NCBI GenBank assembly: GCA_905477545.1
Contig: CAJQGN010000002.1
Coordinates: 1-62,468 of the forward strand
Length of the DNA: 62,468 bases
Direction of reading: 5' to 3'
DNA from: an uncultured Acidimicrobiales bacterium
GTDB taxonomy: Bacteria > Actinomycetota > Acidimicrobiia > Acidimicrobiales > Poriferisodalaceae
Shown: positions 4,742 to 61,516 of the stretch, in pieces
Layout: each line of letters starts with the position of its first letter
Position numbering within the stretch: the first letter of the stretch is position 1
Program-made: the position numbers and the translations under genes
Notes under the pieces: model-generated
The model's input: only the letters and a program-made list of their open reading frames with translations
Told to the model about the DNA's origin: nothing
Database searches by the model: none

Positions 4742-4837
4742 TTCCACGTCCTTAGTAATTAAAATAATTTCGAAATCCAGTATAGATAACGAATAGCCAG
4801 AGCTTAGTCCTACTCCGGGCACGAAACCTAAACTAGC

Positions 4838-35007: not shown

Positions 35008-35448
35008 AACCACATACTCCTGAGTCTTGTTCGATCAACAGTACTTCAAAATTGATTCCTCAATATCGTCCTCAGTTCCCTCACTTTGCAGCTCCTACCA
35101 AAACCGCACCGATCTATATAAAAGATATTAGAAGTCAAGCGCTCTCACGCTGAGTACGCGACTAATGATGCAGCTGTAGCTGATTGAGACGTTGTAACAC
35201 TAAATATTGATGCAATAGCTTCTTAACATGGACAGGAAAGAGCGAATCAGAACGCTAATTATCTTCGAGAGTGTACGAAATTAGAATAAAAAATTAAAAG
35301 ATCAGTTTTTCATTAGGCATATGGTCATCGCGTTGGGCTATGTTCAAAACACGCTCTAAACAAATCGTCAAAATTTCAGTTTTTCTCAAAAGTTAATCTG
35401 AGAGGTTTGGCTTCCTCACAAATGTGTGGGAAGGCTGTTTAGGACGGC

Positions 35449-37385: not shown

Positions 37386-38117
37386 CTAATAGCCAACACT
37401 TGCCCCAATAAACAAATAACAAGACATCCCACTAACAAGGTAACACCCAATTCTTCTAAGAGCCCACCCCGGTTTCTGCCCTAAATATCGACTGACTAGC
37501 CAGCTAATATTGACTGAAATGACCATTACTAAAGCAAATTGCTCTAAATAGTTTGGCGTCACTGGAACAAGATTAAGCTCATTAGTCGTATAGATCAGCC
37601 CCAGCGACCCGGCAGAACCTAGCAGGGGTCCCAGCCAACGTTTTTTACTTGGTCCCATTAAATAAGTAGTTGCATCGAAAACGGCAGTTGTCACGAATAG
37701 AAGCCCAAGGGTTCGTTGGTCTTCCATCGAAAGCAATGAAACTGAAGCACCAGCCAAGCCAGCTGGGAACCACGCGCCTACTAGCTGCGTCGCAGTTATA
37801 GCTGATTTCTTAACTCCCCCCCAACCCACTAATGAGATCAAACCGCTAGCTAGTAGAGCTCCCCCTACAGCCAGGATGACTATCTGTAGTCTGGAAGAGA
37901 ATCCGGAGAGGCTGACAGTGGCTGCAAGGAGTACCGAACACAAGCGATCACTAGCAAATTTACGAGCTAACTGGTTCGCAGCTCCGCACGCAACAATCGT
38001 AAATAGTGCAGCGAATGCTGCGGCTTCTACTACTAGTGATAATGAAAACAGCACAAAAAAAAACAGGCTCAGTAGAACTTGAATAATTGGTGACCCCAGG
38101 ACCTTGTACCCCTTCAT
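37386..38117 (-). CDS. polytopic membrane protein, unknown function
   Basis: 243-aa ORF with about 7 hydrophobic segments. ATGA overlap with the upstream MoaD-like gene. No family motif recognised. Confidence 0.6.
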   Translation of the reverse strand: MKGYKVLGSPIIQVLLSLFFFVLFSLSLVVEAAAFAALFTIVACGAANQLARKFASDRLCSVLLAATVSLSGFSSRLQIVILAVGGALLASGLISLVGWGGVKKSAITATQLVGAWFPAGLAGASVSLLSMEDQRTLGLLFVTTAVFDATTYLMGPSKKRWLGPLLGSAGSLGLIYTTNELNLVPVTPNYLEQFALVMVISVNISWLVSRYLGQKPGWALRRIGCYLVSGMSCYLFIGASVGY

Positions 38118-39170: not shown

Positions 39171-39322
39171 GGTTAAAGTTTATAGCGTTTTGTGTCTAGC
39201 TGCAGCCATATGAGGATATCGACTGTCACTTACCAAAAGCTTTGCGACTAGCCTTCTCTCCACTTTCATATACTCAAAATTCACAGGCAACTCACGCCCG
39301 TCTACTTAAACCCAATCGAAAC

Positions 39323-40690
39323 ATGACCATGAACGTACAAGAACCAAAACCACGCATCTCACTCATGGTTTTCACGAGAGACCTAAGAATCACAGATAAT
39401 CCAGCCTTATCTGCTTCACTAAAAAACACTAAAACATATTGTCTTTTTGTATTTGACGACAGTCTTATCTCAGGTTCACGCCCTCCCTTAAACAGACTAA
39501 AATTTCTTAAGGATTCGCTTCAAGATCTCGCTCTAAGCCTCAAATCTATTGGGGGAGAGTTGATTATTGCTAGTGGTAAGTGGGCAGATACAGTCCTTGA
39601 TGTTGCTAAAAAAATCCATGCTTCAGAAATCAACATCGCAGATGACTACAGCACCTATGCCACCAATCGGATTACTAATCTTGAGAATTATTGCGCTGCA
39701 AATAAAATCACCTTGAACAAACATCCCGGAATATCTATCGTCGAACCAGGGGTTCTAGCTCCGACGGCAGGTTCTGAATATAAAATTTTCACGCCATATT
39801 TTCGTAAATGGATAAACGCCTCATGGCGACGCCAAGCGGTTTTGCCTAAAACAATCGAATTTGGGAAGACCGACCACCAATTCTCTCTTTCTCAAAAGAG
39901 TAAAGATCTTCTTTCAATCAGTTCTTCGGGTTATGGCGGAGAAACTAGTGGTAGCGAAAAGATGAATCAATGGTTGAGTAGGTCTTCAAATGCCTATAAC
40001 AGCACTAAGGATGTTCCTTACCTCGATAGCACTTCTCACCTCTCCGCATTTTTACATTTTGGTTGCATCTCACCGTTGAACTTGGCTATCCAAGCCCAAT
40101 CGTTCCCGGAAACTGAAAATTTTGTACGTCAGCTATGTTGGCGAGATTTTTTTCTTCAAATTCTCGCTGTCAGGCCTGATGCATCAATAAACGACTACAG
40201 AAATCGTAATGATATTTGGGCAAAAGACCCAGAATCATTTATCGCTTGGAAAGAAGGAAAGACTGGATTTCCGCTAGTTGATGCTGGAATGCGTCAACTA
40301 AAAGCTGAAGGATTTATGCACAACCGAACTCGAATGGTAACTGCTTCTTTTTTAGTAAAGGACCTATATCTAGATTGGCGAGTAGGAGCAAGTCATTTCA
40401 TGGAACATCTCATAGATGGCGATATAGCTAATAACCAACTCGGCTGGCAATGGGTTGCAGGCACTGGAACAGATTCTAACCCACATAGAATTCTTAACCC
40501 AATTCGCCAAAGCGAACGCTTTGATCCTTCGGGCTCATACATTCAAAAATGGGTTCCCGAGCTTTCAGGGCTAACACCTAAAACTATTCATGACCCTCCC
40601 TTGGTCATAAGACAACAATGTGGATATCCAGAACAAATTGTCAATCATCACGACGCCGTAGAATTATTCCGGAATAGAAGAGCAAGATAA
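39323..40690 (+). CDS. phr: deoxyribodipyrimidine photolyase / cryptochrome family protein
   Basis: N-terminal photolyase fold (VFTRDLRITDNPAL). FAD-binding C-terminal motifs: WRDFF, GFMHNRTRMVTASFLVKDL, DGDIANNQLGWQWVAGTG, RILNPIRQSERFDP. Start set at the ATG at 39323. Confidence 0.88.
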   Translation: MTMNVQEPKPRISLMVFTRDLRITDNPALSASLKNTKTYCLFVFDDSLISGSRPPLNRLKFLKDSLQDLALSLKSIGGELIIASGKWADTVLDVAKKIHASEINIADDYSTYATNRITNLENYCAANKITLNKHPGISIVEPGVLAPTAGSEYKIFTPYFRKWINASWRRQAVLPKTIEFGKTDHQFSLSQKSKDLLSISSSGYGGETSGSEKMNQWLSRSSNAYNSTKDVPYLDSTSHLSAFLHFGCISPLNLAIQAQSFPETENFVRQLCWRDFFLQILAVRPDASINDYRNRNDIWAKDPESFIAWKEGKTGFPLVDAGMRQLKAEGFMHNRTRMVTASFLVKDLYLDWRVGASHFMEHLIDGDIANNQLGWQWVAGTGTDSNPHRILNPIRQSERFDPSGSYIQKWVPELSGLTPKTIHDPPLVIRQQCGYPEQIVNHHDAVELFRNRRAR

Positions 40691-40746: not shown

Positions 40747-41778
40747 ATGCCATCTTTAGCGCATACTTCGATCGGGCGAGCGCGACTTCGACGCCGAATA
40801 GTTACTATCCCCGGAGTATTTTTGGTAACTGCACTTCTTTTACTTTTACTGGTACCAGTTTTAGTAATTGGTGGACTTATTGATATCTGCTACCGCAGAC
40901 CACTTTCTACAGTTCGCTTAATTCTTTTTACTCTTTGGTGGCTACTTGTTGAAAGCTTTGGGCTCATAGCCGGTTTCATTCTTTGGGGGTATTTTCGTCC
41001 TGGTAAAAGACTCGCCAATCAACGTTCCATCCAGGCACATACTGTTGTACAACGAATCTGGATTAAAGCGTTAGTGACGGCTGCACGCTTATTCCTTGGC
41101 CTAAAGATCAAAGTAGAAGGAGACTCCTTAGAAAATAAAGTAGGTCCTTTCATAATTCTGGCACGCCATGGAAGCCAAGGAGATGCATTGCTTATCGCTG
41201 CGATGCTCGGACGTTTAAAAATTCGCCCTCGTGTAATTCTGAAAAAAGAACTTTTACAAGACCCCTGTTTTGACGTATTCGGCAATCGCCTGCGTAATTA
41301 CTTTGTTGATCGTGACACAGTCGACAATTTCGAAGAAGTTGCATCGATAGGACAGTTAGCAGCTGAAATGAACCCCGATGAAGCCACTCTTATATTTCCT
41401 GAAGGTACGCGCTTCTCATTACCAAAATTAAAGAAATCTATAGCCTCTCTACAAGCAACTGCTCCGTCACGAGTCAAGTCAGCAAAAAATTTACGCTCTG
41501 TTCTCCCAATTAGAAGCCCGGGCATCCTAGCAATACTAAAAAACGCCCCCGAAGCGAACCTGATTTTTATAAATCACGTTGGCGTCAGTCAATTCCGTTC
41601 GATAAAAGATATATGGCGTAACACGCCACTACCAACCGACCTTCACTTCAACATCACATTTCTTCCTAGAAATGAAGCACCAGATAGCGCTTCCCAGGAC
41701 GAACTGATTAAGTTCATTGATTCAAGATGGGAAGAGATCGACGATTGGGTAGTTACAAATCAACAGGCCTTGAGCTGA
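40747..41778 (+). CDS. membrane-anchored lysophospholipid (PlsC-family) acyltransferase
   Basis: 343 aa. Two N-terminal TM helices, HX4D motif HGSQGD and FPEGTR. Confidence 0.75.
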   Translation: MPSLAHTSIGRARLRRRIVTIPGVFLVTALLLLLLVPVLVIGGLIDICYRRPLSTVRLILFTLWWLLVESFGLIAGFILWGYFRPGKRLANQRSIQAHTVVQRIWIKALVTAARLFLGLKIKVEGDSLENKVGPFIILARHGSQGDALLIAAMLGRLKIRPRVILKKELLQDPCFDVFGNRLRNYFVDRDTVDNFEEVASIGQLAAEMNPDEATLIFPEGTRFSLPKLKKSIASLQATAPSRVKSAKNLRSVLPIRSPGILAILKNAPEANLIFINHVGVSQFRSIKDIWRNTPLPTDLHFNITFLPRNEAPDSASQDELIKFIDSRWEEIDDWVVTNQQALS

Positions 41779-42643
41779 TTTTTGTTCTAAACGGGAAGAG
41801 CACAGGAGTGGAAGCTTTATATCGTTCGTATTCCAAATCGCCTTTCCATCTTCGATCAGCTTTTTTTTCTAACATTGGTATACCACTTATCTTGGTCAAA
41901 AGTAGCCACACGAATAGTGGGGAAACTAAAGTTACAAAACTCCATCCAGAAAGAGCCGGGATAGCGATTATGGCTACGCCTGTCCACAAGAGAATTTCAC
42001 CTAAATAATTAGGGTGACGAGAAATCGCCCACAGACCAGACGATATAAAACGATCTTTGTTCTCTTCTTGGCTCCTAAATTTACGTTTGGCTTCATCAGA
42101 AATTACTTCGACTGAGAAGCCGAGAACCCATACTAGAAGACCTAAAAACCCAATTAAACCAAAATTTTTGTCATCTGCAGAAGTAATTGCGGCCAACGCT
42201 GCTGACGCCGTAACTAGAACCCATAATCCCTGAACAGTCCAGGTAAATAAGAACCAAGCAAACTTATGTTTCATGACGTTGAATCTAGAATCTGAACCTT
42301 GACGCTTCACCCTCAAGACAAGGAACGAACCTAGTCGTAATGCCCAGGTGATAACGATGATTGCTAAGATGACTGATCGAGTGCCTACGTTTTTTGAAAA
42401 TAGGAGAGCTATGGATATGACAGTTACATAAGTAATTGAGCCTGTTAAGTCAAAAAAATGCTCTGTGTGTTTTAACCATGCTGCAACGAAACCAACCCAT
42501 TGAACTCCATAGGCAACTATCCCACACAATAAGAAAACTGAGATAGCGCTATCAGAGCCGATGCTTGCACTCACCGCTACAGAAAGTACCGTCCCTAAAA
42601 TAACCGATATTAAAATTCCGAATACGGCTTGGTTTGTTTTCAT
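41753..42643 (-). CDS. DUF1295 / steroid-5-alpha-reductase-like membrane protein
   Basis: 296-aa polytopic ORF with C-terminal WAISRHPNYLGE. ATGA overlap with the upstream SDR gene. Confidence 0.75.
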   Translation of the reverse strand: MKTNQAVFGILISVILGTVLSVAVSASIGSDSAISVFLLCGIVAYGVQWVGFVAAWLKHTEHFFDLTGSITYVTVISIALLFSKNVGTRSVILAIIVITWALRLGSFLVLRVKRQGSDSRFNVMKHKFAWFLFTWTVQGLWVLVTASAALAAITSADDKNFGLIGFLGLLVWVLGFSVEVISDEAKRKFRSQEENKDRFISSGLWAISRHPNYLGEILLWTGVAIIAIPALSGWSFVTLVSPLFVWLLLTKISGIPMLEKKADRRWKGDLEYERYKASTPVLFPFRTKISSRPVDL

Positions 42644-44169
42644 TGGATATTTCTCCGCTTTTCAGCTGCCGAAAGCTCTTCGGCTAATGCCACTATGCGA
42701 TCTAGCATCTTTTTAAAGATTAGAGTGTGCGGTGGAACCAATGCATACCAATAAAGACGCCCTAATAAACCACGAGGTACGAACAAGGCTCGCTGAATAA
42801 TTTCTGCACCATTTTCATTTTCTACTACTTGCCACTCCAACCATGCATGGCCCGGGTTTCTCATTTCACCAAGTAGCCGCAAAGAATGCGAGTTAACGGT
42901 CACCACCTTAAAAAAGTCGACGGTGTCGCCTACTCGTAAATCCGTAGGGTGCCGACGTCCACGTCTTATCCCAACTCCACCAAGAATCTTGTCGATAAAA
43001 CCGCGCAAATTCCAAAGCCAGTTAAAGGCAAACCATCCATTATCTCCCCCAACAGTTCGAAGTACCGCCATCAAATCTGCGCACCTAGCATTTGTGACCT
43101 GAGTTCTCTGATCGCTAAGAACACGTCCGCCAGACCATGCAGGGTCACTCAAAGCCGGCATTGCGGGGCCGGTTAGAGTAGAGATTTGTTTACCACCAGA
43201 AGCATTTGTCCATCGAGTAGGCATCTCAAGATCTCGGACTCTCGCTAATGCCCGATTTATTGATTGATTTAGATTAAATGAGGTAGATCGCCCTTTGTTT
43301 CGAATATCTCTATTTCCAACGACAACATCACTGGTTAATGAATCTATAAGTGATCGCGCTAGCCGAATCGGAAGAGGACTTACAAGGTTTACCCAGTGAG
43401 AAGATAAGCGCGGGGTCAAAACTGGAACTGCGATAATCAAACGACGGCGTAAGCCCGCAACCTCCGCGTACACGTCCATCATCTGTCGATATGTAAGAAC
43501 TTCAGGGCCACCAATCTCAAATACCTCACCAATTACTTCTTCATCACCGAGCACCCCTACAAGATGACTAAGTACGTCTTCAATTGCTATCGGTTGACAG
43601 CGTGTTCGAGATACCCATCTCGGGACAACCATTACCGGGAGCACCTCGACCAAAGAGCGAAGCATTTCAAATGACGCACTTCCAGAGCCAATAATAACTG
43701 CAGCACGTAATTCTGTAACTGGTGTAATTCCAGAAGCAAGTATTTCACCGACAGCGTGACGGCTTGCTAAATGAGCTGAATGAGTTTCATTATCATGGCC
43801 GAGGCCACCCAAGTAGATGATTTGCTCAAGCCCAGCATCGTCAGCGCATTTGACAAATATTTCTGCCATCTCGCTTTCCAGAGTTTCAAAAGAGCCGGAA
43901 GATGACATCGAATGAACTAGGTAGTACGCAGCCTGCGCACCTTCAAGAACTTGATTCACTTCAGAAGCGACAGAAAGATCTGCCTCCACTACTTCGACTC
44001 TCTCTCGCCACGGACGGTCATCTAAAGCCGCCGAGCTTCGCGTTGTGCATCTAACTCTGTAACCAGCTTCTAAAAGTTCCGGGACCAATCGACCACCAAC
44101 GTAACCAGTAACGCCCGTAACAACCACTGTCCCAATATCTGACTGTTCAGCAACATTGCTCTCACCCAT
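42640..44169 (-). CDS. NAD(P)H-binding SDR-type protein with C-terminal DUF2867-like domain
   Basis: 509 aa. Rossmann VVTGVTGYVGGRL, then a C-terminal lipid-binding-like extension of about 170 aa. 8-nt overlap with the upstream gene. Confidence 0.7.
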   Translation of the reverse strand: MGESNVAEQSDIGTVVVTGVTGYVGGRLVPELLEAGYRVRCTTRSSAALDDRPWRERVEVVEADLSVASEVNQVLEGAQAAYYLVHSMSSSGSFETLESEMAEIFVKCADDAGLEQIIYLGGLGHDNETHSAHLASRHAVGEILASGITPVTELRAAVIIGSGSASFEMLRSLVEVLPVMVVPRWVSRTRCQPIAIEDVLSHLVGVLGDEEVIGEVFEIGGPEVLTYRQMMDVYAEVAGLRRRLIIAVPVLTPRLSSHWVNLVSPLPIRLARSLIDSLTSDVVVGNRDIRNKGRSTSFNLNQSINRALARVRDLEMPTRWTNASGGKQISTLTGPAMPALSDPAWSGGRVLSDQRTQVTNARCADLMAVLRTVGGDNGWFAFNWLWNLRGFIDKILGGVGIRRGRRHPTDLRVGDTVDFFKVVTVNSHSLRLLGEMRNPGHAWLEWQVVENENGAEIIQRALFVPRGLLGRLYWYALVPPHTLIFKKMLDRIVALAEELSAAEKRRNIQ

Positions 44170-45058
44170 GCGAACCTGCTAGTTCTTCAGCAGCGGAATC
44201 AAGATTTGGATGCTCGAAAATGAAGCCCGATTCGGTCAGCGCGTCAGGTTTAACTCGCGCGCTCGCTAGCAGCAAACCGTCAGCCATTTCCCCTAGCAAC
44301 AACCTCAGCGCTAATGAAGGAGCTACGAGAAAAGATGGCCGTCTCATTTGTTTTCCAAAAATTCTGACAAATGACTTATTCGTTACAGGCTCCGGGGCAA
44401 CAAGATTTACCGCACCCTCAAGTTCTGAATCAAGCAAATGCAACAAAGCACGAATTTCGTCTTCCAAGCTTATCCATGACCACCATTGCTTGCCGGAACC
44501 TAATGGTCCTCCGACAAAAAATTTAAGCGTTTGCAATATTTTCGGCAGAGCACCGCCCAGCGGTGTACACACTATTCCTGTTCTTGCTATCACTAACCGG
44601 GTCTTCGGACTTGCAATAACGCTCGCTTCAAGCTCCCATTTTTTGCAGACCTCTGACAAAAATCCCGATCCACTAACAGAATTTTCTGAGAGAATCTCAT
44701 CACCTCGATTCCCATAGAAACCGATCGCAGAAGATGACACAACTACCTTCGGAGGGTTATCTAATTCTGAAATCTTGTCTGCTAGCAGAGAAGTTCCTAA
44801 AACTCGGCTGTTAAGAATCCGCTCTTTCTTTCCTTTGCTCCAACGGCCTTCGATGCTTTCACCTGCAAGGTGCACTAAACCGTCCAAACCTTCTAAATCG
44901 CTTGCATCTAAAACAGCTGTAGCCGGATCCCATTCAATATCGGCATCTTTGTTCGGACCGCGGCCTATACGAAGAACAGAATCTCCTCTTTCCTCGAGAG
45001 CTTTCGCCAATGCCGAACCAATCAGCCCTGATGCTCCAGTAATCGCATATTTAGCCAT
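44162..45058 (-). CDS. TIGR01777-family epimerase-like protein (YfcH-like, DUF1731 C-terminus)
   Basis: 298 aa with Rossmann ITGASGLIGSAL. 8-nt overlap (ATGGCTAA) with the regulator gene. Confidence 0.75.
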   Translation of the reverse strand: MAKYAITGASGLIGSALAKALEERGDSVLRIGRGPNKDADIEWDPATAVLDASDLEGLDGLVHLAGESIEGRWSKGKKERILNSRVLGTSLLADKISELDNPPKVVVSSSAIGFYGNRGDEILSENSVSGSGFLSEVCKKWELEASVIASPKTRLVIARTGIVCTPLGGALPKILQTLKFFVGGPLGSGKQWWSWISLEDEIRALLHLLDSELEGAVNLVAPEPVTNKSFVRIFGKQMRRPSFLVAPSLALRLLLGEMADGLLLASARVKPDALTESGFIFEHPNLDSAAEELAGSHG

Positions 45059-45875
45059 CAGCTAACCTTTCTATAAGATCTAGACCCAATCTAAAATCGG
45101 ACATTATGTGGTCTGCCCCAACTGATTCAGCTGTCAAACCGAACAGTCCTGAACCACCCACTACCAATGGGACATTTATATTTTCACGCCTCAGGGATTC
45201 AGTTACATCGCGCAGCCCCTCTAATGAGCCGGCGGTCGAAACTGATAATGCTACCGCAACCAGGCGGTCCGCATCTAAACAAACTTCAACAAACGATACC
45301 GGAGGAGTATTCGAACCAAGGTCGTGCACGTCGAATTTACGGCCTCTAAGCAATAAAGCCAACACGCTTGTAACTAGTCCATGTTCTTCCGTCGGTGGAC
45401 AACCCACTATTACCAGCCCGCGCTTACGGCCACGGACTGCTGAGGTGGCCTGTAGACGTCCAAGTAGTGATGGCACAATAGCTGAAGCACGATGTTCAGC
45501 AGCTATAGAAAAGGTTCCTTCTGCCCATCCCCTACCTATTGATCCCATCGCTGGGAATAGTAAATCAATACAAAAATCTTCGACATCGCAACCTGCAGCT
45601 CTGACAGACTCAGCTATCTTCCACACTCCTTCTTGGTCACCATTAATTAAACAATTCATTAATGGCTCGATCCGTGTCGACAGATCTCGATTGCCGCGTC
45701 CGACTGCAGCGGGCGCTTTATTTTTCAGTTTCTCTAATTCTTCCTTTTCAATTACCCAAGTTCCATTTTCTTTACTCGCTAGTAACATTCCCGTTCGCAC
45801 ATAGCGGTAAATAGTCATGTAGTGGAGATCTAGGATTTCAGCAGCCTCGTGAAGCGTGCACGTTTGACTGTTCAC
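45051..45875 (-). CDS. HTH (excisionase/MerR-type) + cobalamin-binding domain regulator, CarH/LitR-like
   Basis: 274 aa. N-terminal HTH LHEAAEILDLHYMTIYRYVRTG, helical-bundle motif W-x9-EH (GWAEGTFSIAAEH), and B12-binding Rossmann PPTEEHGLV...VHDLGSNTP. Confidence 0.75.
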   Translation of the reverse strand: MNSQTCTLHEAAEILDLHYMTIYRYVRTGMLLASKENGTWVIEKEELEKLKNKAPAAVGRGNRDLSTRIEPLMNCLINGDQEGVWKIAESVRAAGCDVEDFCIDLLFPAMGSIGRGWAEGTFSIAAEHRASAIVPSLLGRLQATSAVRGRKRGLVIVGCPPTEEHGLVTSVLALLLRGRKFDVHDLGSNTPPVSFVEVCLDADRLVAVALSVSTAGSLEGLRDVTESLRRENINVPLVVGGSGLFGLTAESVGADHIMSDFRLGLDLIERLADG

Positions 45876-45893: not shown

Positions 45894-48854
45894 CTATTCA
45901 TCGTCAGAAACCGCCGAAATACTTTGAGGTGACAAACGTTCCATCATCGAAACTCGACGATCTTGCATCTCACGCCATGTCAGAGTCTTGACTTCATCAC
46001 GCACACCAACCGCCCGCCGTAAAGACACATCTGAAATATCTTTCGCTTCGACGGAAAACCCTATTTCCGTTGCTACACGAACACCATTCCGACCAAAAAA
46101 ACCCATCGCTATTTGAGAAAATTCGGCTAAGAGGTCCATATCTGGGTCAAGCTCTTGAACCACTGATGAAAGATAGGCAAAATTCTTTACGAAAAGCATC
46201 AGTTCTTTAGGAATTCGAGCTCCATGAGACAACAAGCCTCGAACCAGATTCCTGAACTCTGCAACAAATTCTTCCTCAGTAAGTTCTAACGGATCAAAGT
46301 CATCACGATCTAATTGGAACTCACTTATCAACAGCCCTATGTCAGTGTCAGAAGAAAAGGCTCCCAAATCACGAATCCCAGATACTTGAGCCTCCAAGTC
46401 GCCAGTCATTAGGCCAACAACATATCGCAGAAACGCGATTCGCCTTTCTCCATCAAGACGACCGGTTATACCAAAATCGACTAGTCCTACTTCTCCCTCG
46501 GTCCCTAGGAAAACATTTCCAGCATGAAAATCACCATGGAATATTCCATGAATCACAGCACCCTCAAGTAAACCATCCACCATTTGTCGAAAGATTCGCC
46601 GCACATCCACTGGTTCTATTGATAACGAGCTGAGATCTCCAAGCGGAACTCCGCTGACGCGACTCATTACAATTACCCGATCGGACACTAACTCTAGGTA
46701 TGGATCTGGCAGTTCCCAGCTATTTCGCGCGTTCGATTTTAAGGCTCGCCCAGTCTCAAACAAATTTGCCACTTCGAGTCGAAAATCTAACTCTTCACAG
46801 ATCGTCTCTGCAAACAGCTCAACTAATGCCGGCGGATTAGCCAAGGCGGCGACTGGTAACTTACCAACTAACCGGGGGGCGACCCACGCCATAACACGTA
46901 AGTCACTTGTAACCCGACGACGAATTTTAGACCGTTGGATTTTCACAACGACTGGTGTTCCATCTAATAATTGCGCCAAATGTACTTGCGCTATCGAAGC
47001 CGCAGCAATTGGAACACTCTCTACATTAAGAAAATTATTTTTTAACGGACCCAGGTCATTAACAAGTATTTTCTTTGCCTTTAACCAAGGTTCAGGGCTA
47101 ACTTGGTCCCGACATTTCCGACATTCTTCTACGAGCGCTTCTGGAAAAACTCCTTCAGCTGCCGAAATCAACTGCGCGAGCTTGACATAAGCAGGACCTT
47201 GTTTCTCACCAGCTCGAATAAGCCGCCTATAAAGAGATGCTCGGTTATCTAGATCATTTAATTTTCGGTCACAAACCTTCCATAAAATAACTGCTTTCCC
47301 AAAACGAAAAGCAGTCGTTATCAATCGCCCCAATGGAGGAAACTTTGGGCTCCTAATTAATTGTGGTATCGACGATCGAACTGAATCCCTAATAGTTGAA
47401 GCAGCACGTATCCATTCATCTTCGGGACTAGTAGAAACATCTCCAAAAACTTCCTCATTAGAAATATCAACAGCTTTAAAGGAAGAATCAATGCGAGGCT
47501 CATCACCTTTCTTAAAATTTTCCTCTATAGCAATATGTAATTCCGCAGGCCCCCAGATGCCCATTGACAGTGGCTTCCAGATAACCGGAGAAGTTAAACG
47601 AAAAGCGGGAACGAGCTCAACGAATGCAGTTAACGCCTCCTGTAACTCAGCTCGAGCTAAGGATGCGCCAAGACAATGATGTGCTCCTGCACCAAAAGCT
47701 AAATGCGGGCACCCCTTTGTTCTAGCAATATTAAACTCGTACCCATCATCCTCGGTCGATTCCGATAATCCTGCGGCATGAAGACCAAGCAAAACTGTTG
47801 TACCAGCTGGGAACCGAATACCATCGACCACTATGTCCCGTGCGGCTAATCTAGCCGTCGTCCGAACTGCACTGATGTAACGCAGCGACTCTTCAACTGC
47901 TGATGGAATAAGCGACGGATCCTCTCTCAGAGCCTCGTATTGATCGGGATGATCAGCTAAGACTGCAATCATTGCGCCTAGTTGGTTTCTAGTGGTATCT
48001 GTACCAGCAAGCAATATTGCTTGAACCATTGCAATGAGCTCATCGCTCGTTAACCGATCTTCCTCCTCTTTCCCTCGAATGAGTTCACTCAAAAGATCGT
48101 TCGTCGGTTCCTTGGACCTCTTTTCGATTAGCTCAAAGACATAAGCATCAAGTTCAGATTGAGCTTGTACAACGTCGTCCAAACGATCAATAACTGCCTC
48201 AGTATCAGCATCTAAAGCAGAAAAAATTATGTCCGCCCAATTATCGAACAGTCTCCAGTCAGCATCATCAACTCCAAGTAGTCGGCAGATTATTGGCACC
48301 GGATATGGTCGGCAGAACTCACTTACTAGTTCACCACTACCACGGTCACACATCGTTGAAATCAATGACTGTGCATGCGATTTCATAAAGGGACGCAGAT
48401 CTCTCGCCCCACCCATAGTAAAAGAACCGTTAACTAATTGACGCAAGCGGCGATGATCTTTACCTTCAACAGAAAGAACGTTTGGTCTTATTTTGAACGA
48501 ACTTGGCGCCTCAGGAACAGACAGCTGAGATCGGGACACAAACTCATTAAAGTCCGTCGACAATGAATCCATTTCTTCCAACATTGAAACGCCAGATAGA
48601 ACCGATATCCAATTGGGGTCTCTAAGAATGGACTTAACCTGTTTGAATCCTAGGACTAGGGGCCCCGCAGGGGTCGAGACCACCCAACCCGCCTCGGCAG
48701 CAAGTTTTTTACTTGCGGCGACAATTTCACCAAAATTTTGCGGCGAAATATTAACAAATGAAAGAGCCCCAGGATCATTTACATCAACTACATCTATCTG
48801 ATCAAAAGCCGAACCTATCTCATCCGCCATAGTTCTCAGACTCCTCAAAAACAT
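45894..48854 (-). CDS. cytochrome P450 fused to ABC1/UbiB/ADCK-type atypical kinase
   Basis: Uninterrupted 986-aa ORF. P450 half: LLAGTDTT (I-helix), EESLRY (ExxR), FGAGAHHCLGASLA (Cys ligand loop). ABC1 half: PIAAASIAQVHLAQLLDGTPVVVKIQR, DFRLEVANL, HGDFHAGNVF, LVDFG. Confidence 0.8.
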   Translation of the reverse strand: MFLRSLRTMADEIGSAFDQIDVVDVNDPGALSFVNISPQNFGEIVAASKKLAAEAGWVVSTPAGPLVLGFKQVKSILRDPNWISVLSGVSMLEEMDSLSTDFNEFVSRSQLSVPEAPSSFKIRPNVLSVEGKDHRRLRQLVNGSFTMGGARDLRPFMKSHAQSLISTMCDRGSGELVSEFCRPYPVPIICRLLGVDDADWRLFDNWADIIFSALDADTEAVIDRLDDVVQAQSELDAYVFELIEKRSKEPTNDLLSELIRGKEEEDRLTSDELIAMVQAILLAGTDTTRNQLGAMIAVLADHPDQYEALREDPSLIPSAVEESLRYISAVRTTARLAARDIVVDGIRFPAGTTVLLGLHAAGLSESTEDDGYEFNIARTKGCPHLAFGAGAHHCLGASLARAELQEALTAFVELVPAFRLTSPVIWKPLSMGIWGPAELHIAIEENFKKGDEPRIDSSFKAVDISNEEVFGDVSTSPEDEWIRAASTIRDSVRSSIPQLIRSPKFPPLGRLITTAFRFGKAVILWKVCDRKLNDLDNRASLYRRLIRAGEKQGPAYVKLAQLISAAEGVFPEALVEECRKCRDQVSPEPWLKAKKILVNDLGPLKNNFLNVESVPIAAASIAQVHLAQLLDGTPVVVKIQRSKIRRRVTSDLRVMAWVAPRLVGKLPVAALANPPALVELFAETICEELDFRLEVANLFETGRALKSNARNSWELPDPYLELVSDRVIVMSRVSGVPLGDLSSLSIEPVDVRRIFRQMVDGLLEGAVIHGIFHGDFHAGNVFLGTEGEVGLVDFGITGRLDGERRIAFLRYVVGLMTGDLEAQVSGIRDLGAFSSDTDIGLLISEFQLDRDDFDPLELTEEEFVAEFRNLVRGLLSHGARIPKELMLFVKNFAYLSSVVQELDPDMDLLAEFSQIAMGFFGRNGVRVATEIGFSVEAKDISDVSLRRAVGVRDEVKTLTWREMQDRRVSMMERLSPQSISAVSDDE

Positions 48855-48942: not shown

Positions 48943-48958
48943 TATTTAGTGCTAAATA
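48943..48958. promoter_or_regulatory. perfect 7-2-7 palindrome, candidate operator
   Basis: TATTTAG-TG-CTAAATA in the 139-nt gap upstream of the P450-ABC1 gene. The surrounding sequence is AT-rich, so a chance occurrence is plausible. Confidence 0.2.
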
Positions 48959-48993: not shown

Positions 48994-50280
48994 TTAAACC
49001 TTATTTAAAATTGTTTCAGCGGCGCGACGGCCAGAGACCAACGCCCCTTGGATAGAAGGAGTGTCTCGATGATCACCACACACAAAACAATTATCTGAAA
49101 TTTCAAGTCGTCGTCGAAAAGGTCTACCTGGTTCGAACAATGGTTGACTATGGGCAATAGCGAAAGTCTTTAAATGGCGCCATTCATCTACGCATTCTCC
49201 AAACCACCGATGCATTTGACTGAGGACCTCACCTTCGGTGACGTCATTGTTTCCTGGCATAGCCGCAACGATCAACGCCTCTGTTCCTGTCGCGTAACTT
49301 GACGCTACGTTCGACAAAATAGCCATATTCCTTACTGGCCCCTGACCGTCTCCTGCAAGGAAAATAGCACTGTCTTTTGAGGGCGCCGCAGGAGCCGAGA
49401 AATACATGCATCTTTGAGAACGTGAATAAACAGTTTCGATTCCTAGAAGTTGCGATGCGCTAGGGCCATCGGTTGCCACAATTAACTGAGCCGGTTGAAA
49501 CTTCAGTCCGTTCTTAAGAAAAACGTCTCGACCCGCTATCGACTCAACCGGTGAATTCAACATAAGGCTATCTTCAGGTAAACGCTGAGACATTTGCTTC
49601 GGTATTTCACCCATTCCTCGACTTGGCAACGCAGCACTGCCACGAAACAAACAACCAAGAATATAAAACCCAAGCCGAGCCGATCCCTCAAGCCGAGGCG
49701 TTAACTGAATGCCAGAAAGAAGCGGAAAGAAAAAACTCCCAATTGCCTCTCGCGAAAAACCGAACTCTTGAAGCGCTAGCTCCATCGAAATATCAGACTT
49801 AGGTTCCCAAGACTTGCTTAATAAAATTCGCAACTTCAATAGTCTTAGCTTGTCCTTAGTCTTTAAGGAGCGAGAGAGCGCAGCTGGAAAAACAGCCAAA
49901 GGTCTTTTCGCTGGATCTATTAAACGACTTAATTTATCTTCTTTCACCAGCACGGCACCAGACTCGAAATAACACAGATCCAGTGCATCTAGATCAACAT
50001 GTCGCTCAAGCTCTGGGTAAGCAGTCAACAGAACTTGAAATCCGCGGTCAAAAAGAAATTCTCCATGAACATCAGTACGAACCCGACCGCCCACTTCACC
50101 AGCTGCTTCGATAACTAGGACTTCTCTCTTATTTGCTTTAAGAAAAGAAGCTGCCGCTAAGCCGGCTAGGCCCGCCCCAACTATTAGCGTTTCAGGGCTA
50201 GAGCTATTTTTTGGCTCTCGATGAATACTCACAGTCAAAGGCTTACCTGCAAAAAACTTGGCTGTCGAAAACAAACTCAA
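48994..50280 (-). CDS. NAD(P)/FAD-dependent oxidoreductase (amine-oxidase / CrtI-like fold)
   Basis: 428 aa. Dinucleotide motif LIVGAGLAGLAAA followed by VLVIEA...VGGR. The TTG start is uncertain. Confidence 0.75.
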   Translation of the reverse strand: MSLFSTAKFFAGKPLTVSIHREPKNSSSPETLIVGAGLAGLAAASFLKANKREVLVIEAAGEVGGRVRTDVHGEFLFDRGFQVLLTAYPELERHVDLDALDLCYFESGAVLVKEDKLSRLIDPAKRPLAVFPAALSRSLKTKDKLRLLKLRILLSKSWEPKSDISMELALQEFGFSREAIGSFFFPLLSGIQLTPRLEGSARLGFYILGCLFRGSAALPSRGMGEIPKQMSQRLPEDSLMLNSPVESIAGRDVFLKNGLKFQPAQLIVATDGPSASQLLGIETVYSRSQRCMYFSAPAAPSKDSAIFLAGDGQGPVRNMAILSNVASSYATGTEALIVAAMPGNNDVTEGEVLSQMHRWFGECVDEWRHLKTFAIAHSQPLFEPGRPFRRRLEISDNCFVCGDHRDTPSIQGALVSGRRAAETILNKV

Positions 50281-50417: not shown

Positions 50418-50490
50418 GGGCCGCTAGCTCATCTGGTAGAGCAGGGGACTTTTAATCCCAAGGTGCCGGGTTCAAGCCCCGGGCGGCCTA
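50418..50490 (+). tRNA. tRNA-Lys (anticodon TTT)
   Basis: Hand-folded 73-nt cloverleaf. Acceptor GGGCCGC/GCGGCCT, anticodon loop CT-TTT-AA, T-arm CCGGG-TTCAAGC-CCCGG. CCA is not encoded. Confidence 0.9.
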
Positions 50491-50558
50491 CAACTACAAA
50501 TCACTTCAAGTAAATCAAAAGCTAGCTCTTAGGCGATGGTTGAACTCGCAGTGAACAA

Positions 50559-58863: not shown

Positions 58864-59547
58864 CTATGGGATTAGATAAACGACGGCAAAAATTACGATC
58901 CAAACAATATCTACAAAATGCCAGTAGAGACCAATTATCTCTACTGTCTCAGCACGCTCAGCACCAATGTTACCCCGGCTTATAAGTGACCAAAGGGTTA
59001 CTAGCATTATGATGCCGAGTGATACGTGCACACCGTGAAAGCCAGTGAGCGTGAAAAAGGCAGACGACGAGATATTCGTCGTGAAGCCGAGCCCCTCACG
59101 GTAAAATCCCGTGAACTCGTATACCTGACCGGCTATGAACACTGTCCCTAATATGGCAGTGGTGAGCAGCCACATTTTGCAACGCTCTAACTCACCTCTA
59201 CCTATTGAGGTAACTGCTAACACCATTGTCAGTGAACTCATCAAAAGAACAAACGAACTGACTGACGTAAACGGGATATCGAACAGATCTGCAGCGGTGG
59301 AGCCTTCGGTATCCGGACCAACACGATTACGAAGCAAAAGATATGTTGATATCAGTGACGCAAACAATAGACAATCAGAGCCTAGGAAAGCCCACATCGT
59401 CATTTTTTCGTTACTGAGCCCCGTGGTAAGAGGGGGCACATCGTAGTCATCCCATTCAGTCGGACCATATGCCAACTGTGAGGTCTTGACCTCAGTTGCA
59501 TTATCCAACGGGAGCCTCCTCCGTGCTTTCATCTTTTGGTAAATCAA
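58864..59547 (-). CDS. ctaE: cytochrome c oxidase subunit III
   Basis: 227 aa. WAFLGSDCLLFASLISTYL and FHGVHVSLG motifs. The start (59547 or 59532) overlaps the end of ctaD. Confidence 0.85.
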   Translation of the reverse strand: MIYQKMKARRRLPLDNATEVKTSQLAYGPTEWDDYDVPPLTTGLSNEKMTMWAFLGSDCLLFASLISTYLLLRNRVGPDTEGSTAADLFDIPFTSVSSFVLLMSSLTMVLAVTSIGRGELERCKMWLLTTAILGTVFIAGQVYEFTGFYREGLGFTTNISSSAFFTLTGFHGVHVSLGIIMLVTLWSLISRGNIGAERAETVEIIGLYWHFVDIVWIVIFAVVYLIP

Positions 59548-61516
59548 TTAAATTTTCTGACTGGTCACCATCAGGCTCATCATGGTCATCGCCATGTCCA
59601 TGACCTGCATCTGGATCAGTATGTGGTTCCAAACTCCAGCCATATATGGCTGCTACCAGAACTAAAAGCCCAATGCCAGTTAACCAAAGAGTGTAAATGA
59701 GCCCTAAAGCTATTAAAGGAAGCCCAGAAGCTAACACAATCGGCCAGTAAGACGGAGACGGCAGGTGAGGATGTTGATCACCTAGTTGCGCAATCGCGTT
59801 ACCATCGGCCACTTTGCGAAGTTTACCGTTCTCATCTTTTTGGTATTTTTTATGCCAAAAGTCGTCTACATCAGTTACCACTGGCACGTAGTCAAAGTTG
59901 TGTTCTGGCGTTGGTGAAGGAATTGCCCATTCTAGAGTTCTCCCATCCCAAGGATCAGCTGGAGATTGCTCGATTGTTCCGGCTTTATAACCAAGCCAAG
60001 TCTTAACGATGTTTATAGCGAAGACAATCATTCCAATTAAGATGACGAACGCTCCAATTGAAACCATCAAGTTCCAGAAATCAAAACCATCTTCTGGTCC
60101 ATATCTACTATGTCGCCTTGCCATTCCTTGTAAGCCCAAAATATGCATTGGCCCGAAGGTCAAATTAAAGCCGACTAGAACGATCCAGAAATGCCATTTG
60201 CCTAGAGTGTCGTTCAGTTTGTATCCGAACGCCTTTGGCCACCAGTAGTACATTCCAGCGAACAGCCCCATTAGAGCGCCACCAAATAGTACGTAGTGAA
60301 AGTGAGCGACAATGAAATAGGTATCAGTTTGCTGTGTGTCCGCTGGCGCCACCGAATGCATCACGCCCGACAAGCCGCCAATAGTAAACATAGACACTAG
60401 CGATATTGAGAACATCATCGGAACGGTGAAAGTGATTTTGCCGCCCCACATTGTGGCTATCCAGTTCAAAATCTTAACACCTGTCGGAACTGCGATAAAC
60501 ATGGTAGTTGCCGAGAATGCTGCAACGCTCACTGGTCCAAGCCCGGATACGAACATATGGTGAGCCCATACGCCCCAGCCCATAAATCCAATTGCGGCTC
60601 CAGATATAACAATCACCGAGTAACCAAAGAGCGGTTTCCGACTAAATACTGGGAGCGTCTCAGAAACGATACCAAATGATGGGAGTATCAAAATATAGAC
60701 TTCCGGATGCCCGAATATCCAAAATAGATGCTGCCAGAGAAGCGGATCAGCTCCCATGCCGACATTGAAGAAGTTGGCGTCAAATGTTCTGTCCATAGAC
60801 AAAAGCACCAGAGCGACAGTTATGACAGGTAATGCAAATAGTAACAAAAACTGAACTACCAAAATCATCCAGGTAAAGACCGGCATACGAAGAAGGGTCA
60901 TTCCGGGAGCACGCATATTAATAATTGTGACAATCAGGTTTATCGCCCCAACTAGCGATGCAATACCAGCTATTTGTAGACCCAACGCATAAAAATCCAT
61001 TCCTGCGCCAGGGCTAAACGTCACACTGGTATTTGGAGCGTACGCAAACCAACCGCCGTCTGGCCCACCACCAAGAAACCAGCTTAAGTTGAGAAAAATG
61101 CCACCGAAAACAAAAATCCAAAGTCCCAGGGCATTCATCCGTGGAAACGCTACGTCACGGGCACCAATTTGGAGAGGGACAATGTAGTTGGCAAACGCAG
61201 CTGCAAGTGGCATAACCACTAGAAACACCATTGTGGTGCCATGCATTGTAAAGATTTGGTTGTATTGCTCAGCGGTTAAAACTGTTCCATCTGGAGTTAA
61301 AAGTTGGCTTCGTATTAGGAGCGCTTCGATACCACCCCAAAAAAACCAAAACATCGCGACTGCGCCGTACATTATTCCAATTTTTTTATGATCAACGGTA
61401 AAAACCCAAGCCCTCCAACCTTTTGCATTCGTTGGTCGAGCAAACGCGCCGGTAGAAGGCTTTGTCTCACCACTCTCAATTTCGAGGATTAGAGGAGGTT
61501 CCTCTGTAATCGCCAT
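59501..61516 (-). CDS. ctaD: cytochrome c oxidase subunit I (extended, about 14-TM form)
   Basis: 671 aa with WIFGHPEVYILILP and the HHMF region. It has two extra C-terminal TM helices and an acidic/His-rich tail. Confidence 0.95.
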   Translation of the reverse strand: MAITEEPPLILEIESGETKPSTGAFARPTNAKGWRAWVFTVDHKKIGIMYGAVAMFWFFWGGIEALLIRSQLLTPDGTVLTAEQYNQIFTMHGTTMVFLVVMPLAAAFANYIVPLQIGARDVAFPRMNALGLWIFVFGGIFLNLSWFLGGGPDGGWFAYAPNTSVTFSPGAGMDFYALGLQIAGIASLVGAINLIVTIINMRAPGMTLLRMPVFTWMILVVQFLLLFALPVITVALVLLSMDRTFDANFFNVGMGADPLLWQHLFWIFGHPEVYILILPSFGIVSETLPVFSRKPLFGYSVIVISGAAIGFMGWGVWAHHMFVSGLGPVSVAAFSATTMFIAVPTGVKILNWIATMWGGKITFTVPMMFSISLVSMFTIGGLSGVMHSVAPADTQQTDTYFIVAHFHYVLFGGALMGLFAGMYYWWPKAFGYKLNDTLGKWHFWIVLVGFNLTFGPMHILGLQGMARRHSRYGPEDGFDFWNLMVSIGAFVILIGMIVFAINIVKTWLGYKAGTIEQSPADPWDGRTLEWAIPSPTPEHNFDYVPVVTDVDDFWHKKYQKDENGKLRKVADGNAIAQLGDQHPHLPSPSYWPIVLASGLPLIALGLIYTLWLTGIGLLVLVAAIYGWSLEPHTDPDAGHGHGDDHDEPDGDQSENLIDLPKDESTEEAPVG

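Follow-up and report, generated by a model that had tools for sequence, protein, structure and literature searches.

The 986-codon open reading frame at 45894..48854 encodes a genuine bifunctional protein, a cytochrome P450 joined to a UbiB/ABC1 domain, which is conserved in marine Acidimicrobiia and whose catalytic function is assigned from sequence. In the window (the whole stretch of DNA analysed, 62,468 nucleotides) the open-reading-frame listing shows it on the minus strand as one ORF of 986 aa with an ATG start; the plus-strand frame over the same interval is riddled with stops, and the minus-strand translation runs without interruption. An earlier note on this DNA, silent on the strand, had described a single 986-codon frame with two domains. 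The ORF listing, the translation, and Pfam agree with that description, and every motif the note quoted lies where it was placed in the minus-strand translation. Profile-HMM assignment, also proposed there, put the p450 and ABC1 models both above cutoff. The parts of the ORF are as follows.

45894..48854, minus strand: P450–UbiB fusion ORF, 986 codons as called, 978 aa if the start is Met9.
47520..48782, minus strand: cytochrome P450 domain, residues ~25–445 (Pfam, PDB sequence matches, AF2 with Foldseek, motifs).
47430..47519, minus strand: inter-domain linker, residues ~446–475 (homologue alignment columns 616–715; pLDDT 59–73).
46017..47429, minus strand: UbiB/ABC1 atypical-kinase/ATPase domain with N-terminal KxGQ extension, residues ~476–946 (Pfam, NCBIfam, alignments).

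The true start of the fusion is probably Met9 (ATG at 48830, with GAGGAG 5' of it), since in a homologue at 95% identity a stop codon follows the upstream ATG and the protein begins MMADE. The linker, for which structure prediction with AF2 gave the pLDDT listed above, differs in length and sequence among the aligned homologues. Across all 986 residues the AF2 model has a pTM of 0.79, which suggests that the two domains pack in a defined arrangement; a Foldseek search of this model against the PDB returned P450 chains only and found no two-domain precedent.

A check for orthologous fusions recovered the same architecture across marine Acidimicrobiia genomes: it is uninterrupted in ~90 protein clusters, drawn from NCBI, JGI, ENA, and Logan, and in 80 genome loci, at 49–95% identity. 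By tblastn, a single continuous alignment covers both domains in 77 of the 80 genome loci (80/83 of all loci), and the loci with an unbroken fusion include complete Ca. Poriferisodalis chromosomes. An assembly or gene-calling artefact uniting two neighbouring genes is a possibility a priori, to which the two-piece alignments in three of the 80 loci (L074, L079, and L083) lend something, but the single ORF in the window, the continuity of the other 77 independent loci with finished chromosomes among them, and the range of databases behind the ~90 clusters refute it short of read-level evidence in this assembly, and we put its probability as negligible. The closest stand-alone relatives of the two halves (P0105 for UbiB, P0269 for the P450) are not encoded side by side, which rules out split-gene neighbours as support for coupling.

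The N-terminal half is best explained as a P450 monooxygenase that activates O2 and belongs to class I, the three-component bacterial type. Pfam p450 (PF00067) matches residues 104–413 with 95 bits (cutoff 22.8) and, together with the full set of signature motifs, upholds the description of this half as a complete P450. The I-helix motif LLAGTDTT occupies residues 281–288 (AGTDTT, 283–288, coded at 47991–48008), the ExxR motif is EESLRY at residues 321–326 (coded at 47877–47894; EESLR, 321–325), and the Cys-ligand loop FGAGAHHCLGASLA spans residues 387–400, with the codon of the heme-ligand Cys394 at 47673–47675. FGAGAHHCLG matches the FxxGxxxCxG pattern, and F387, G388, G390, H392, H393, C394, L395, and G396 are invariant in 21 sequences; the AGTDTT acid–alcohol pair and EESLR are likewise unchanged in 21 homologues at 52–95% identity. 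The PDB sequence matches are to CYP107-type P450s (E~1e-54), and Foldseek aligned the AF2 model of this half with CYP107P2, P450BioI, and AurH (target TM 0.82–0.86; 0.86 for CYP107P2/P450BioI). The B–C loop (residues 95–121) is long, variable in the alignment, and of low confidence in the AF2 model.

In the fusion protein, searches with Pfam and NCBIfam found only p450 and ABC1-type domains, and no FMN, FAD, or Fe–S electron-transfer domain. That the window encodes neither ferredoxin nor ferredoxin reductase, as had been noted before, held in two ways: no ferredoxin Cys motif was found in any of its frames, and neither Pfam domain occurs among the ~58 larger ORFs scanned. Bacterial class I P450s usually have redox partners whose genes lie elsewhere.

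By its profile scores, the C-terminal half is a UbiB-family member other than a ubiquinone UbiB orthologue. ABC1 (PF03109) matches residues 581–821 with 159 bits (cutoff 22.9), and the alignment to NCBIfam UbiB (TIGR01982) spans residues 523–911; the equivalog cutoffs of TIGR01982 (246 vs. 487.55 bits) and PRK04750 (150 vs. 667 bits) are not reached, which rules out the ubiquinone orthologue. Acidimicrobiia are not known as ubiquinone makers, and COQ8/UbiB biochemistry applies here by analogy only. This half also matches the NCBIfam model of MABP-1, a macrolide-binding ATPase.

The motifs of the family lie at residues 615–641 (PIAAASIAQVH...VVVKIQR), 773–782 (HGDFHAGNVF), and 791–795 (LVDFG), with the A-rich loop AAASIAQ (617–623) in place of a Gly-rich loop. 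Lys638 (codon 46941–46943), Glu687/688, Asp775, Asn780, and Asp793 align with the catalytic residues of COQ8A and MABP-1, which, with the PF03109 score, bears out the claim of a complete ABC1/UbiB domain. These residues, K558, Q561, and the AAAS loop are invariant in 21 homologues (52–95% identity). The KxGQ position reads K558-L-A560-Q561, its Lys and Gln invariant and its Gly replaced by an invariant Ala, and the gating KxGQ region also holds a family-specific CxxC (Cys578/Cys581, 47112–47123), which might add redox control. No transmembrane helix was found in the fusion with 19-residue hydropathy windows (highest KD19 1.38), a feature that had been overlooked; the stand-alone relatives P0098, P0099, and P0102 reach KD19 values of 2.3–2.8. 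The best explanation is that the membrane helices present in the stand-alone relatives were lost from the UbiB half.

The fusion is the first gene of a tight five-gene operon (fusion, CarH/LitR-like, YfcH-like, NAD-binding/DUF2867, DUF1295). The earlier note had passed over this operon, the photolyase neighbourhood, and the palindrome upstream.

48994..50280, minus strand: flavin amine-oxidase/CrtI/HpnE-like oxidoreductase directly upstream of the fusion, kept in 15 loci.
48945..48956, unstranded: palindrome TTTAGTGCTAAA (consensus TTTAGYRCTAAA) in the 139-bp gap 5' of the fusion gene.
45051..45875, minus strand: CarH/LitR-like regulator (HTH_17 + B12-binding_2 + B12-binding), beginning 18 nt past the fusion stop.
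44162..45058, minus strand: YfcH/TIGR01777-type NAD epimerase-like oxidoreductase (+DUF1731), with an 8-nt overlap with the CarH/LitR-like gene.
42640..44169, minus strand: NAD(P)-binding domain + DUF2867 protein, with an 8-nt overlap with the YfcH-like gene.
41753..42643, minus strand: DUF1295 membrane protein (steroid-reductase/ICMT-like), whose gene closes the operon and overlaps the DUF2867 gene by 4 nt.
40747..41778, plus strand: PlsC-type acyltransferase downstream of the photolyase, kept as a neighbour in 14 loci.
39242..40690, plus strand: DNA photolyase, convergent with the operon, kept as a neighbour in 13 loci.

Synteny of the fusion with CarH, photolyase, DUF1295, DUF2867, and the amine-oxidase-like gene extends over at least four deep clades. 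In the Poriferisodalis clade and two planktonic subclades, which hold most homologues, the fusion is not beside CarH or photolyase, so that light control would be lineage-specific and not intrinsic to the fusion protein. A context conserved in all homologues is ruled out by the loci of P0058 and P0002, which have unrelated neighbours. The genes around the fusion are lipid- or redox-flavoured. The upstream flavoprotein scores far under the cutoffs for a CrtI carotenoid desaturase or HpnE and thus gives no pathway assignment, and its domain content rules out a P450 reductase.

Pfam confirms the HTH, B12-binding_2, and B12-binding architecture of the regulator, which has the Wx9EH motif (W-AEGTFSIAA-EH) and the lower-ligand His (EEH) and is homologous to TtCarH (5c8a/5c8d), LitR (3whp), and B12 photoreceptor modules (8j2x). 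It scores 51 bits where the equivalog cutoff for CarH is 400, and its HTH is matched by HTH_17 and by no MerR model. The palindrome is a candidate operator of this regulator: related loci totalling 1.3 Mb contain 27 exact sites where 0.25 would be expected, and TTTAGYRCTAAA is confined to loci with a CarH-like gene (14/14 site-bearing loci, Fisher p 8e-12). One related locus, L029, has three sites, all promoter-proximal, and there the palindrome stands also before an SOD–sigma70–photolyase operon. The window itself contains one site, and comparison of the promoter regions of its fusion, amine-oxidase, and photolyase genes found weak AT-rich matches only and no shared operator, so the regulon picture rests on related loci such as L029. 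A sigma-70 consensus scan upstream of the fusion found nothing convincing and fewer sites than in shuffles. The CarH/LitR-like gene, the photolyase, and the operator-like palindrome together point to a role in light or photo-oxidative stress.

The architecture had been put forward as novel, which does not stand: a large ABC1→P450 family and other small ones are present in public data, and their IMG annotation already bears both domain names. Such fusions have at least three independent origins and occur in both domain orders. The large family is of ABC1→CYP110-like P450 type (~870 aa, >80 clusters, Myxococcota and Binatia); P0130 and P0203 are ABC1→P450, P0249 is P450→ABC1, P0248 combines ABC1 with an AurF-like domain, and the Myxococcota ABC1+P450 fusions include P0130 and P0274. 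When P0287 and P0327 were read through, the motifs of both halves were intact. These fusions share with the Acidimicrobiia protein the same two Pfam families within one protein and lie beside regulators of their own (an ECF sigma factor) or lipid genes (a CMAS methyltransferase/SDR), but their order is mostly reversed, their P450 classes and phyla are different, and they are only 27–33% identical to either half, as separate fusion events that are likewise uncharacterised. A literature search on P450 fusions with UbiB, ABC1, or AarF found no description of any such protein. The repeated welding of ABC1 to oxygenases is strong Rosetta-stone evidence that ABC1/UbiB serves such enzymes.

The explanation we favour, with confidence a little short of an even chance, is a light-induced, anchor-free P450–UbiB protein whose UbiB ATPase hands an isoprenoid lipid to the P450. 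The UbiB half would dock on the membrane surface and, by binding and hydrolysing ATP, take hold of a hydrophobic isoprenoid lipid by its head group; this lipid could be a carotenoid, menaquinone or one of its precursors, or some other lipid of the membrane. The UbiB half would then present the lipid to the tethered P450 for hydroxylation or oxidation, and a ferredoxin and ferredoxin reductase whose genes lie elsewhere would supply the electrons. In this genome, as in several planktonic clades, the fusion leads the five-gene operon, which the CarH/LitR-like B12 photoreceptor-repressor may control via the palindromic operator. With the palindrome upstream and the photolyase alongside, light most likely switches the system on, as one element in a response to photo-oxidative stress or in the remodelling of membrane lipids. 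We observed which domains the protein holds, that their motifs are intact and the fusion conserved, how the operon is built, and that operator and regulator occur together; we infer that light induces the system, that ATP drives the hand-over, and what kind of substrate is handed over. Coupled extraction or activation and oxidation, the reading of the earlier note, fits the recurrent ABC1–oxygenase fusions and the model of UbiB/COQ8 as an ATP-driven chaperone that draws quinone intermediates out of the membrane and passes them to tailoring enzymes (bioRxiv 10.64898/2026.02.03.703536; 10.64898/2026.03.05.709815); the prenyl-lipid, quinone, or carotenoid substrate it named is not singled out by any result. 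Held more tentatively still is the wider proposal that UbiB domains are general ATP-driven lipid hand-over modules for oxygenases, of which the Acidimicrobiia protein would be a soluble single-chain version, light-induced via a B12 photoreceptor and oxidising a membrane isoprenoid (e.g. menaquinone or a carotenoid) in photo-oxidative stress.

The coupling could instead be regulatory: the UbiB half, a protein kinase or a switch worked by ATP, would phosphorylate or conformationally gate the attached P450 (or other proteins) to tune its activity under stress, and would leave lipid untouched. The fully conserved kinase-like catalytic residues and the CxxC within the gating region would suit this, as would some plant ABC1K members, which are reported to be Mn2+-dependent protein kinases (PMC8956952). 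We nevertheless consider it unlikely: the A-rich loop and KxGQ extension (here KLAQ), which occlude the protein-substrate cleft in COQ8A, are retained here, recent biochemistry favours ATPase/lipid-chaperone activity (the two bioRxiv reports above), and repeated fusion to oxygenases (two P450 classes and an AurF-like protein) suits metabolic channelling better than generic regulation.

Decidedly less probable is defence against, or by, a small molecule (a xenobiotic or secondary metabolite), in which an MABP-1-like ligand-binding ATPase and a macrolide-type P450 would inactivate or tailor a soluble hydrophobic compound and not a membrane lipid. It draws on the nearest solved structures (M. tuberculosis 5yjz for the UbiB half, E 4e-21; MycG, EryF, OleP, and PikC, which tailor macrolides/polyketides, for the P450), on the match to the MABP-1 model, and on the predicted solubility of the fusion by hydropathy, but these similarities, at identities of ~30%, mirror which actinobacterial members were crystallised. 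The Pfam scan of the window found no PKS/NRPS or resistance genes near the fusion, the genes kept beside it code for a photolyase, lipid-type enzymes, and a regulator resembling a B12 photoreceptor, and planktonic MedAcidi genomes are described as streamlined (PMC4337565). We give still less weight to the P450 half as a heme-based sensor of O2, NO, CO, or redox state that governs the UbiB ATPase and is no catalyst itself, which is improbable. The oxidative or light-stress context and the lack of a redox partner in the window would suit it, but the invariant D286–T287 acid–alcohol pair, ExxR, and Cys loop are hallmarks of O2-activating catalytic P450s, and in bacterial class I P450s redox partners are usually unlinked.

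The role of UbiB/ABC1/COQ8 proteins, which bear on human CoQ deficiency and plant high-light tolerance, has been disputed for decades, with kinase, ATPase, lipid extractor, and latterly decarboxylase all proposed. The absence of a membrane anchor and the heme as a spectroscopic reporter make the Acidimicrobiia fusion attractive for testing the hand-over model: with a heme protein as acceptor, ATP-dependent substrate delivery could show directly as a P450 spin-state shift, which, if the hand-over reading is true, would be the first simple assay for UbiB/COQ8 protein function. The analysis also provides a candidate regulon and operator for a B12 photoreceptor in abundant planktonic marine Actinobacteria and would add an unstudied enzyme to their light response. 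Should the mechanism be wrong, the analysis still puts on record an uncharacterised family of P450s that is conserved, and a domain architecture that recurs and that annotation pipelines now reduce to "cytochrome P450" or "ubiquinone biosynthesis protein".

Among known systems, COQ8A/COQ8B (ADCK3/4) and bacterial UbiB share with the fusion the ABC1/UbiB fold family, the N-terminal extension that holds the KxGQ position, the A-rich loop, and the catalytic Lys/Glu/Asp/Asn/Asp, and the proposed role in the CoQ/Ubi hydroxylase metabolon, ATP-driven extraction and delivery to oxygen-dependent tailoring enzymes, is the same. Here, however, the oxygenase is part of the same chain, with a P450 in place of a flavin or di-iron hydroxylase, the protein is without a transmembrane helix, KxGQ reads KLAQ with a CxxC added, and the UbiB equivalog cutoff is not reached. 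The nearest solved structures of the UbiB half, Mycobacterium MABP-1 (Rv3197; PDB 5yjz, E 4e-21) and an M. smegmatis ABC1 protein (7cy2, 2e-18), are likewise actinobacterial and of soluble type, but both are stand-alone and the likeness is ~30% identity over the kinase core only; the macrolides reported as MABP-1 ligands are without support as a ligand class for the fusion.

CarH/LitR systems (Thermus, Myxococcus, Streptomyces, Pseudomonas) have the same HTH, 4-helix-bundle, and Rossmann B12 module, Wx9EH, and lower-ligand His as the regulator here, whose gene lies inside an operon presumably under its own control. LitR regulons elsewhere are of similar flavour, with photolyase, SDR, and FAD oxidoreductase, and the targets named there do not include a P450–UbiB gene (PMC9758184). 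The regulator differs in its HTH_17-type HTH and in a score far under the CarH equivalog cutoff, and its candidate operator is a 12-bp palindrome.

CYP107-type class I P450s (HmtT 3wvs, MycG, EryF, OleP, P450BioI, Vdh) are the best sequence and fold matches of the P450 half (TM 0.78–0.87), which differs from them in its long, variable, low-confidence B–C loop, in the attached non-redox domain, and in an identity of ~26–33% in structural alignments, under the customary 40% CYP-family line. P450BM3/CYP102 and CYP116B/RhF are single-chain fusions of a P450 with a helper domain. The likeness to these, and to the natural P450–ferredoxin fusion CYP51fx (PMC7947880), is that of one polypeptide with a P450 and a helper domain; whereas such self-sufficient fusions carry an electron-transfer partner, the Acidimicrobiia protein has no redox domain and pairs its P450 with an ATPase/kinase-like domain.

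The fusion gene is the sole entry in the ORF list of the window to cover both halves of the protein:

45894-48854 (-): fusion gene, cytochrome P450 half followed by UbiB/ABC1 atypical-kinase half, 986 aa

On translation its minus-strand frame is open throughout, against many stops in the plus-strand frame, which bears out the single 986-codon frame described in an earlier note; each motif quoted there was also found at its residue position. Profile HMMs agree with the domain assignment, both Pfam families exceeding their cutoffs: p450 over residues 104-413 (95 bits vs. 22.8) and ABC1 over residues 581-821 (159 bits vs. 22.9), with several NCBIfam class-I P450 models aligning over residues ~94-442 and the NCBIfam UbiB model over 523-911. 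Met9 (ATG at 48830) is probably the true start, because a Shine-Dalgarno GAGGAG lies 10 nt upstream and a 95%-identical homologue has a stop directly after the upstream ATG, its protein starting MMADE.

A search of 5.8 billion proteins, clustered at 90% identity, returned ~90 clusters with both Pfam domains (963-1208 aa, 49-95% identity), drawn from NCBI, JGI, ENA, and Logan and in some cases lying on megabase contigs. Scanning one genome per GTDB species gave 175 genomes with a relative, and the best 80 loci are all from marine Acidimicrobiia MAGs or SAGs, including MedAcidi-G1/G2B/G3, “Acidimicrobiaceae” and Ca. Poriferisodalis sponge symbionts (some finished chromosomes). A single tblastn alignment from residue ~20 to ~975 was obtained in 77 of these 80, confirming the orthologous fusions in related Acidimicrobiia for which the earlier note had proposed a search; the locus in the Arctic marine Acidimicrobiia MAG FRAM18_bin006 (L004) shares 95% identity and gene order with the window, which marks the source of the window as closely related to that MAG. 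The fusion is not an assembly artefact, an explanation left with a negligible probability. Two MAGs carry two copies on separate contigs (SP142, loci L017 and L065; ERR3589563_binner12_42, loci L039 and L040), which could be paralogues or variants from different strains placed in the same bin.

Residue conservation was judged on an alignment of 21 diverse fusion members. In the P450 half, no member departs from the AGTDTT acid-alcohol pair, from EESLR, or from the Cys394-containing loop FGxGxHHCLG; Cys181 and Cys190 are likewise invariant. The closest solved P450s by sequence are of the CYP107-type class I (HmtT, MycG, EryF, and OleP at E ~1e-54), and the fold matches CYP107P2 and P450BioI with a TM of 0.86 at 26-33% identity. 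The nearest stand-alone P450 relative is 43% identical, and the P450 half probably represents a new CYP family. The linker (residues ~446-475) varies in length and sequence among the 21 members. An AlphaFold2 model of the whole chain (89 sequences) reached a mean pLDDT of 78 and a pTM of 0.79, above expectation for two freely hinged domains, which suggests a defined domain interface.

Invariant in the UbiB half are K558/Q561 of the KxGQ motif (which reads KLAQ in the fusion family), the AAASIAQ A-rich loop, Lys638, Glu687/688, Asp775, Asn780, and Asp793, and these match the equivalent positions of COQ8A and Mycobacterium tuberculosis MABP-1 (5yjz), its closest structures. The UbiB half scores under the UbiB equivalog cutoffs and shares 37-44% identity with its nearest stand-alone relatives. 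A hydrophobic helix was sought across the fusion protein and none was found (maximum hydropathy in a 19-residue window, KD19, 1.38); transmembrane segments are evident in the stand-alone relatives P0098, P0099, and P0102. A helix of the KxGQ (gating) extension carries an invariant, fusion-family-specific CxxC (Cys578/Cys581, window 47112-47123), a possible redox or metal site; related stand-alone UbiB proteins have a single cysteine of this pair.

Exhaustive scanning of 1.84 billion representatives with phmmer turned up the query layout in one 50%-identity cluster only (P0077); the Acidimicrobiia fusion family thus forms one group that stands well apart. Other proteins combine ABC1 with an oxygenase:

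P0130: Myxococcales, ABC1 then P450
P0203: ABC1 then P450
P0249: P450 then ABC1, ~30% identical
P0248: ABC1 with an AurF-like di-iron oxygenase
P0272-P0361 (e.g. P0287, P0327, P0355): family with N-terminal ABC1/UbiB and C-terminal CYP110-like P450
L089 6001-8643 and L090 6001-8670: genes of the CYP110-like family in two unrelated genomes

The CYP110-like family, retrieved by searching with P0130, is large (~860-880 aa), spans Myxococcota, Binatia, Thermodesulfobacteriota, and many metagenomes, and is apparently undescribed; IMG labels its proteins “cytochrome P450/predicted unusual protein kinase...”. At L089 and L090, the fusion gene and an ECF sigma factor gene point away from each other, and two small ORFs come after the sigma factor gene. 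The claim of a never-seen architecture was thus overstated, as P0130, P0203, P0249, and this family share both domains, and a full-text literature search found no published description of any ABC1 and P450 fusion. Given both domain orders and several separate families with differing P450 classes, sequence comparison argues that ABC1 and P450 were fused independently at least three to four times. The P0249 operon also holds a CMAS-type lipid methyltransferase and an SDR, and Binatia-type fusions adjoin ECF sigma factors, both compatible with a lipid or stress theme. ABC1/UbiB was also seen fused to a NucS C-terminal domain (P0123) and to DUF3159 (P0132).

The genomic context of the fusion gene was overlooked in the earlier note:

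Upstream: CrtI/HpnE-like flavoprotein
45051-45875 (-): CarH-like regulator, 274 aa, second operon gene, 18 nt after the fusion gene
Third operon gene: YfcH/TIGR01777 oxidoreductase
Fourth operon gene: NAD-binding/DUF2867 protein
Fifth operon gene: DUF1295 membrane protein
Convergent on the operon: DNA photolyase and PlsC-type acyltransferase

The regulator comprises HTH_17, B12-binding_2, and B12-binding domains, retains the Wx9EH signature and the lower-ligand His, and is homologous to Thermus CarH, LitR, and other B12 photoreceptor modules; the three genes after it overlap by 8, 8, and 4 nt in order. This neighbourhood is kept in 13-19 of the best 80 loci, which are spread over no fewer than four deep planktonic clades in the tree of fusion proteins; among those 80 it was not found in the sponge-symbiont clade or two planktonic subclades. 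Elsewhere in the window lie:

11502-11593 (+) and 12133-12222 (-): two tRNA-Ser genes
28395-32021 (-): 1208-aa single chain, hydantoinase A and hydantoinase B/oxoprolinase
33398-34033 (-), 211 aa, and 37386-38117 (-), 243 aa: no Pfam match at E<=0.001
34636-35013 (-): 125-aa protein, a ChrR-type cupin domain on its own, ~11 kb away from the operon
50418-50491 (+): tRNA-Lys(ttt) in the gap upstream of the amine-oxidase-like gene (the CrtI/HpnE-like flavoprotein gene above)
59501-61516 (-): cytochrome oxidase subunit I, 671 aa, whose C-terminal Cyt_c_ox_IV domain makes it look like a fused subunit I+IV
61557-62417 (-): adjacent cytochrome oxidase subunit II with a cytochrome c domain

The ChrR domain of anti-sigma factors is tied to singlet-oxygen responses. 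Owing to the tRNA-Lys, the promoter of the amine-oxidase-like gene must fall within the ~140 nt between tRNA and start.

Alignment of the regions upstream of fusion genes revealed a conserved 12-bp palindrome, TTTAGYRCTAAA, which in the window occupies 48945-48956, inside the 139-bp gap 5' of the fusion gene, as the sole good match in 62 kb. The best 80 loci (1.3 Mb) contain 27 exact sites, where 0.25 would be expected. Sites are confined to loci with the CarH-like gene: it is present at every one of the 14 loci that have a site, and the 61 loci lacking it have none (Fisher p 8e-12, 80 loci). The palindrome sits ~35-45 nt upstream of the start codon in most clades, a position that would overlap the core promoter and has the look of a putative dark-state repressor site. 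One relative, L029, has three sites, each promoter-proximal:

Site 1: before the fusion operon
4758-4769 and 18652-18663: before the superoxide dismutase operon and the DUF4864/MpaB-Lcp unit

The former operon (superoxide dismutase, THAP4-like heme-binding, sigma-70, photolyase, and acyltransferase) begins 41 nt after its site, and the latter unit is a divergent oxygenase unit. Second and third sites also occur in L024-L028, L038, L063, and L070. The genes behind the L029 sites sketch, for planktonic Acidimicrobiia, a candidate regulon for light or oxidative stress; known LitR/CarH regulons also hold photolyase, SDR, and FAD-oxidoreductase genes (PMC9758184).

In recent work, COQ8 is presented as an ATP-driven chaperone that recognises the head groups of quinone intermediates, pulls them from membranes, and supplies a tailoring metabolon, and bacterial UbiB as an ATPase giving the soluble Ubi complex access to intermediates (bioRxiv 10.64898/2026.02.03.703536, 10.64898/2026.03.05.709815). 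A soluble P450 reaches a membrane-buried substrate poorly, and a tether to a UbiB module would therefore be a simple solution. On these two grounds we tentatively favour, at somewhat less than an even chance, a model in which the UbiB half would capture a hydrophobic isoprenoid lipid in an ATP-dependent manner and pass it to the P450 half, which would oxidise it with electrons from an unlinked ferredoxin/reductase; as the earlier note had stated, the window encodes neither ferredoxin nor ferredoxin reductase. Menaquinone and carotenoids are candidate substrates, with mycobacterial CYP128, which hydroxylates MK-9, as precedent for the former and Thermus CYP175A1, which lies in a light-inducible cluster, for the latter. 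In the lineage of the window, expression is probably light-induced via the co-encoded B12 regulator.

Set against this capture-and-oxidation model, a UbiB half acting on the P450 as a regulatory kinase or switch seems unlikely. The resemblance to MABP-1 brings to mind a similar device for small-molecule defence, which we consider distinctly improbable, and a P450 half serving as a heme sensor is less probable still. The earlier proposal of coupled extraction or activation and oxidation of a prenyl-lipid, quinone or carotenoid-like substrate is partly supported: it is reasonable in its direction and has gained independent comparative support, shorn of its architectural novelty.

The recurrence of such fusions and the heme read-out make the long-standing question of UbiB function directly testable, and new ground is also opened by the candidate B12-photoreceptor regulon of these abundant marine Actinobacteria. 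Cooperation of UbiB and oxygenase domains will in itself not surprise the specialist: a UbiB-family helper partnering an oxygenase is known, and what is new here is the covalent joining, the lack of an anchor, and the probable regulation by light.
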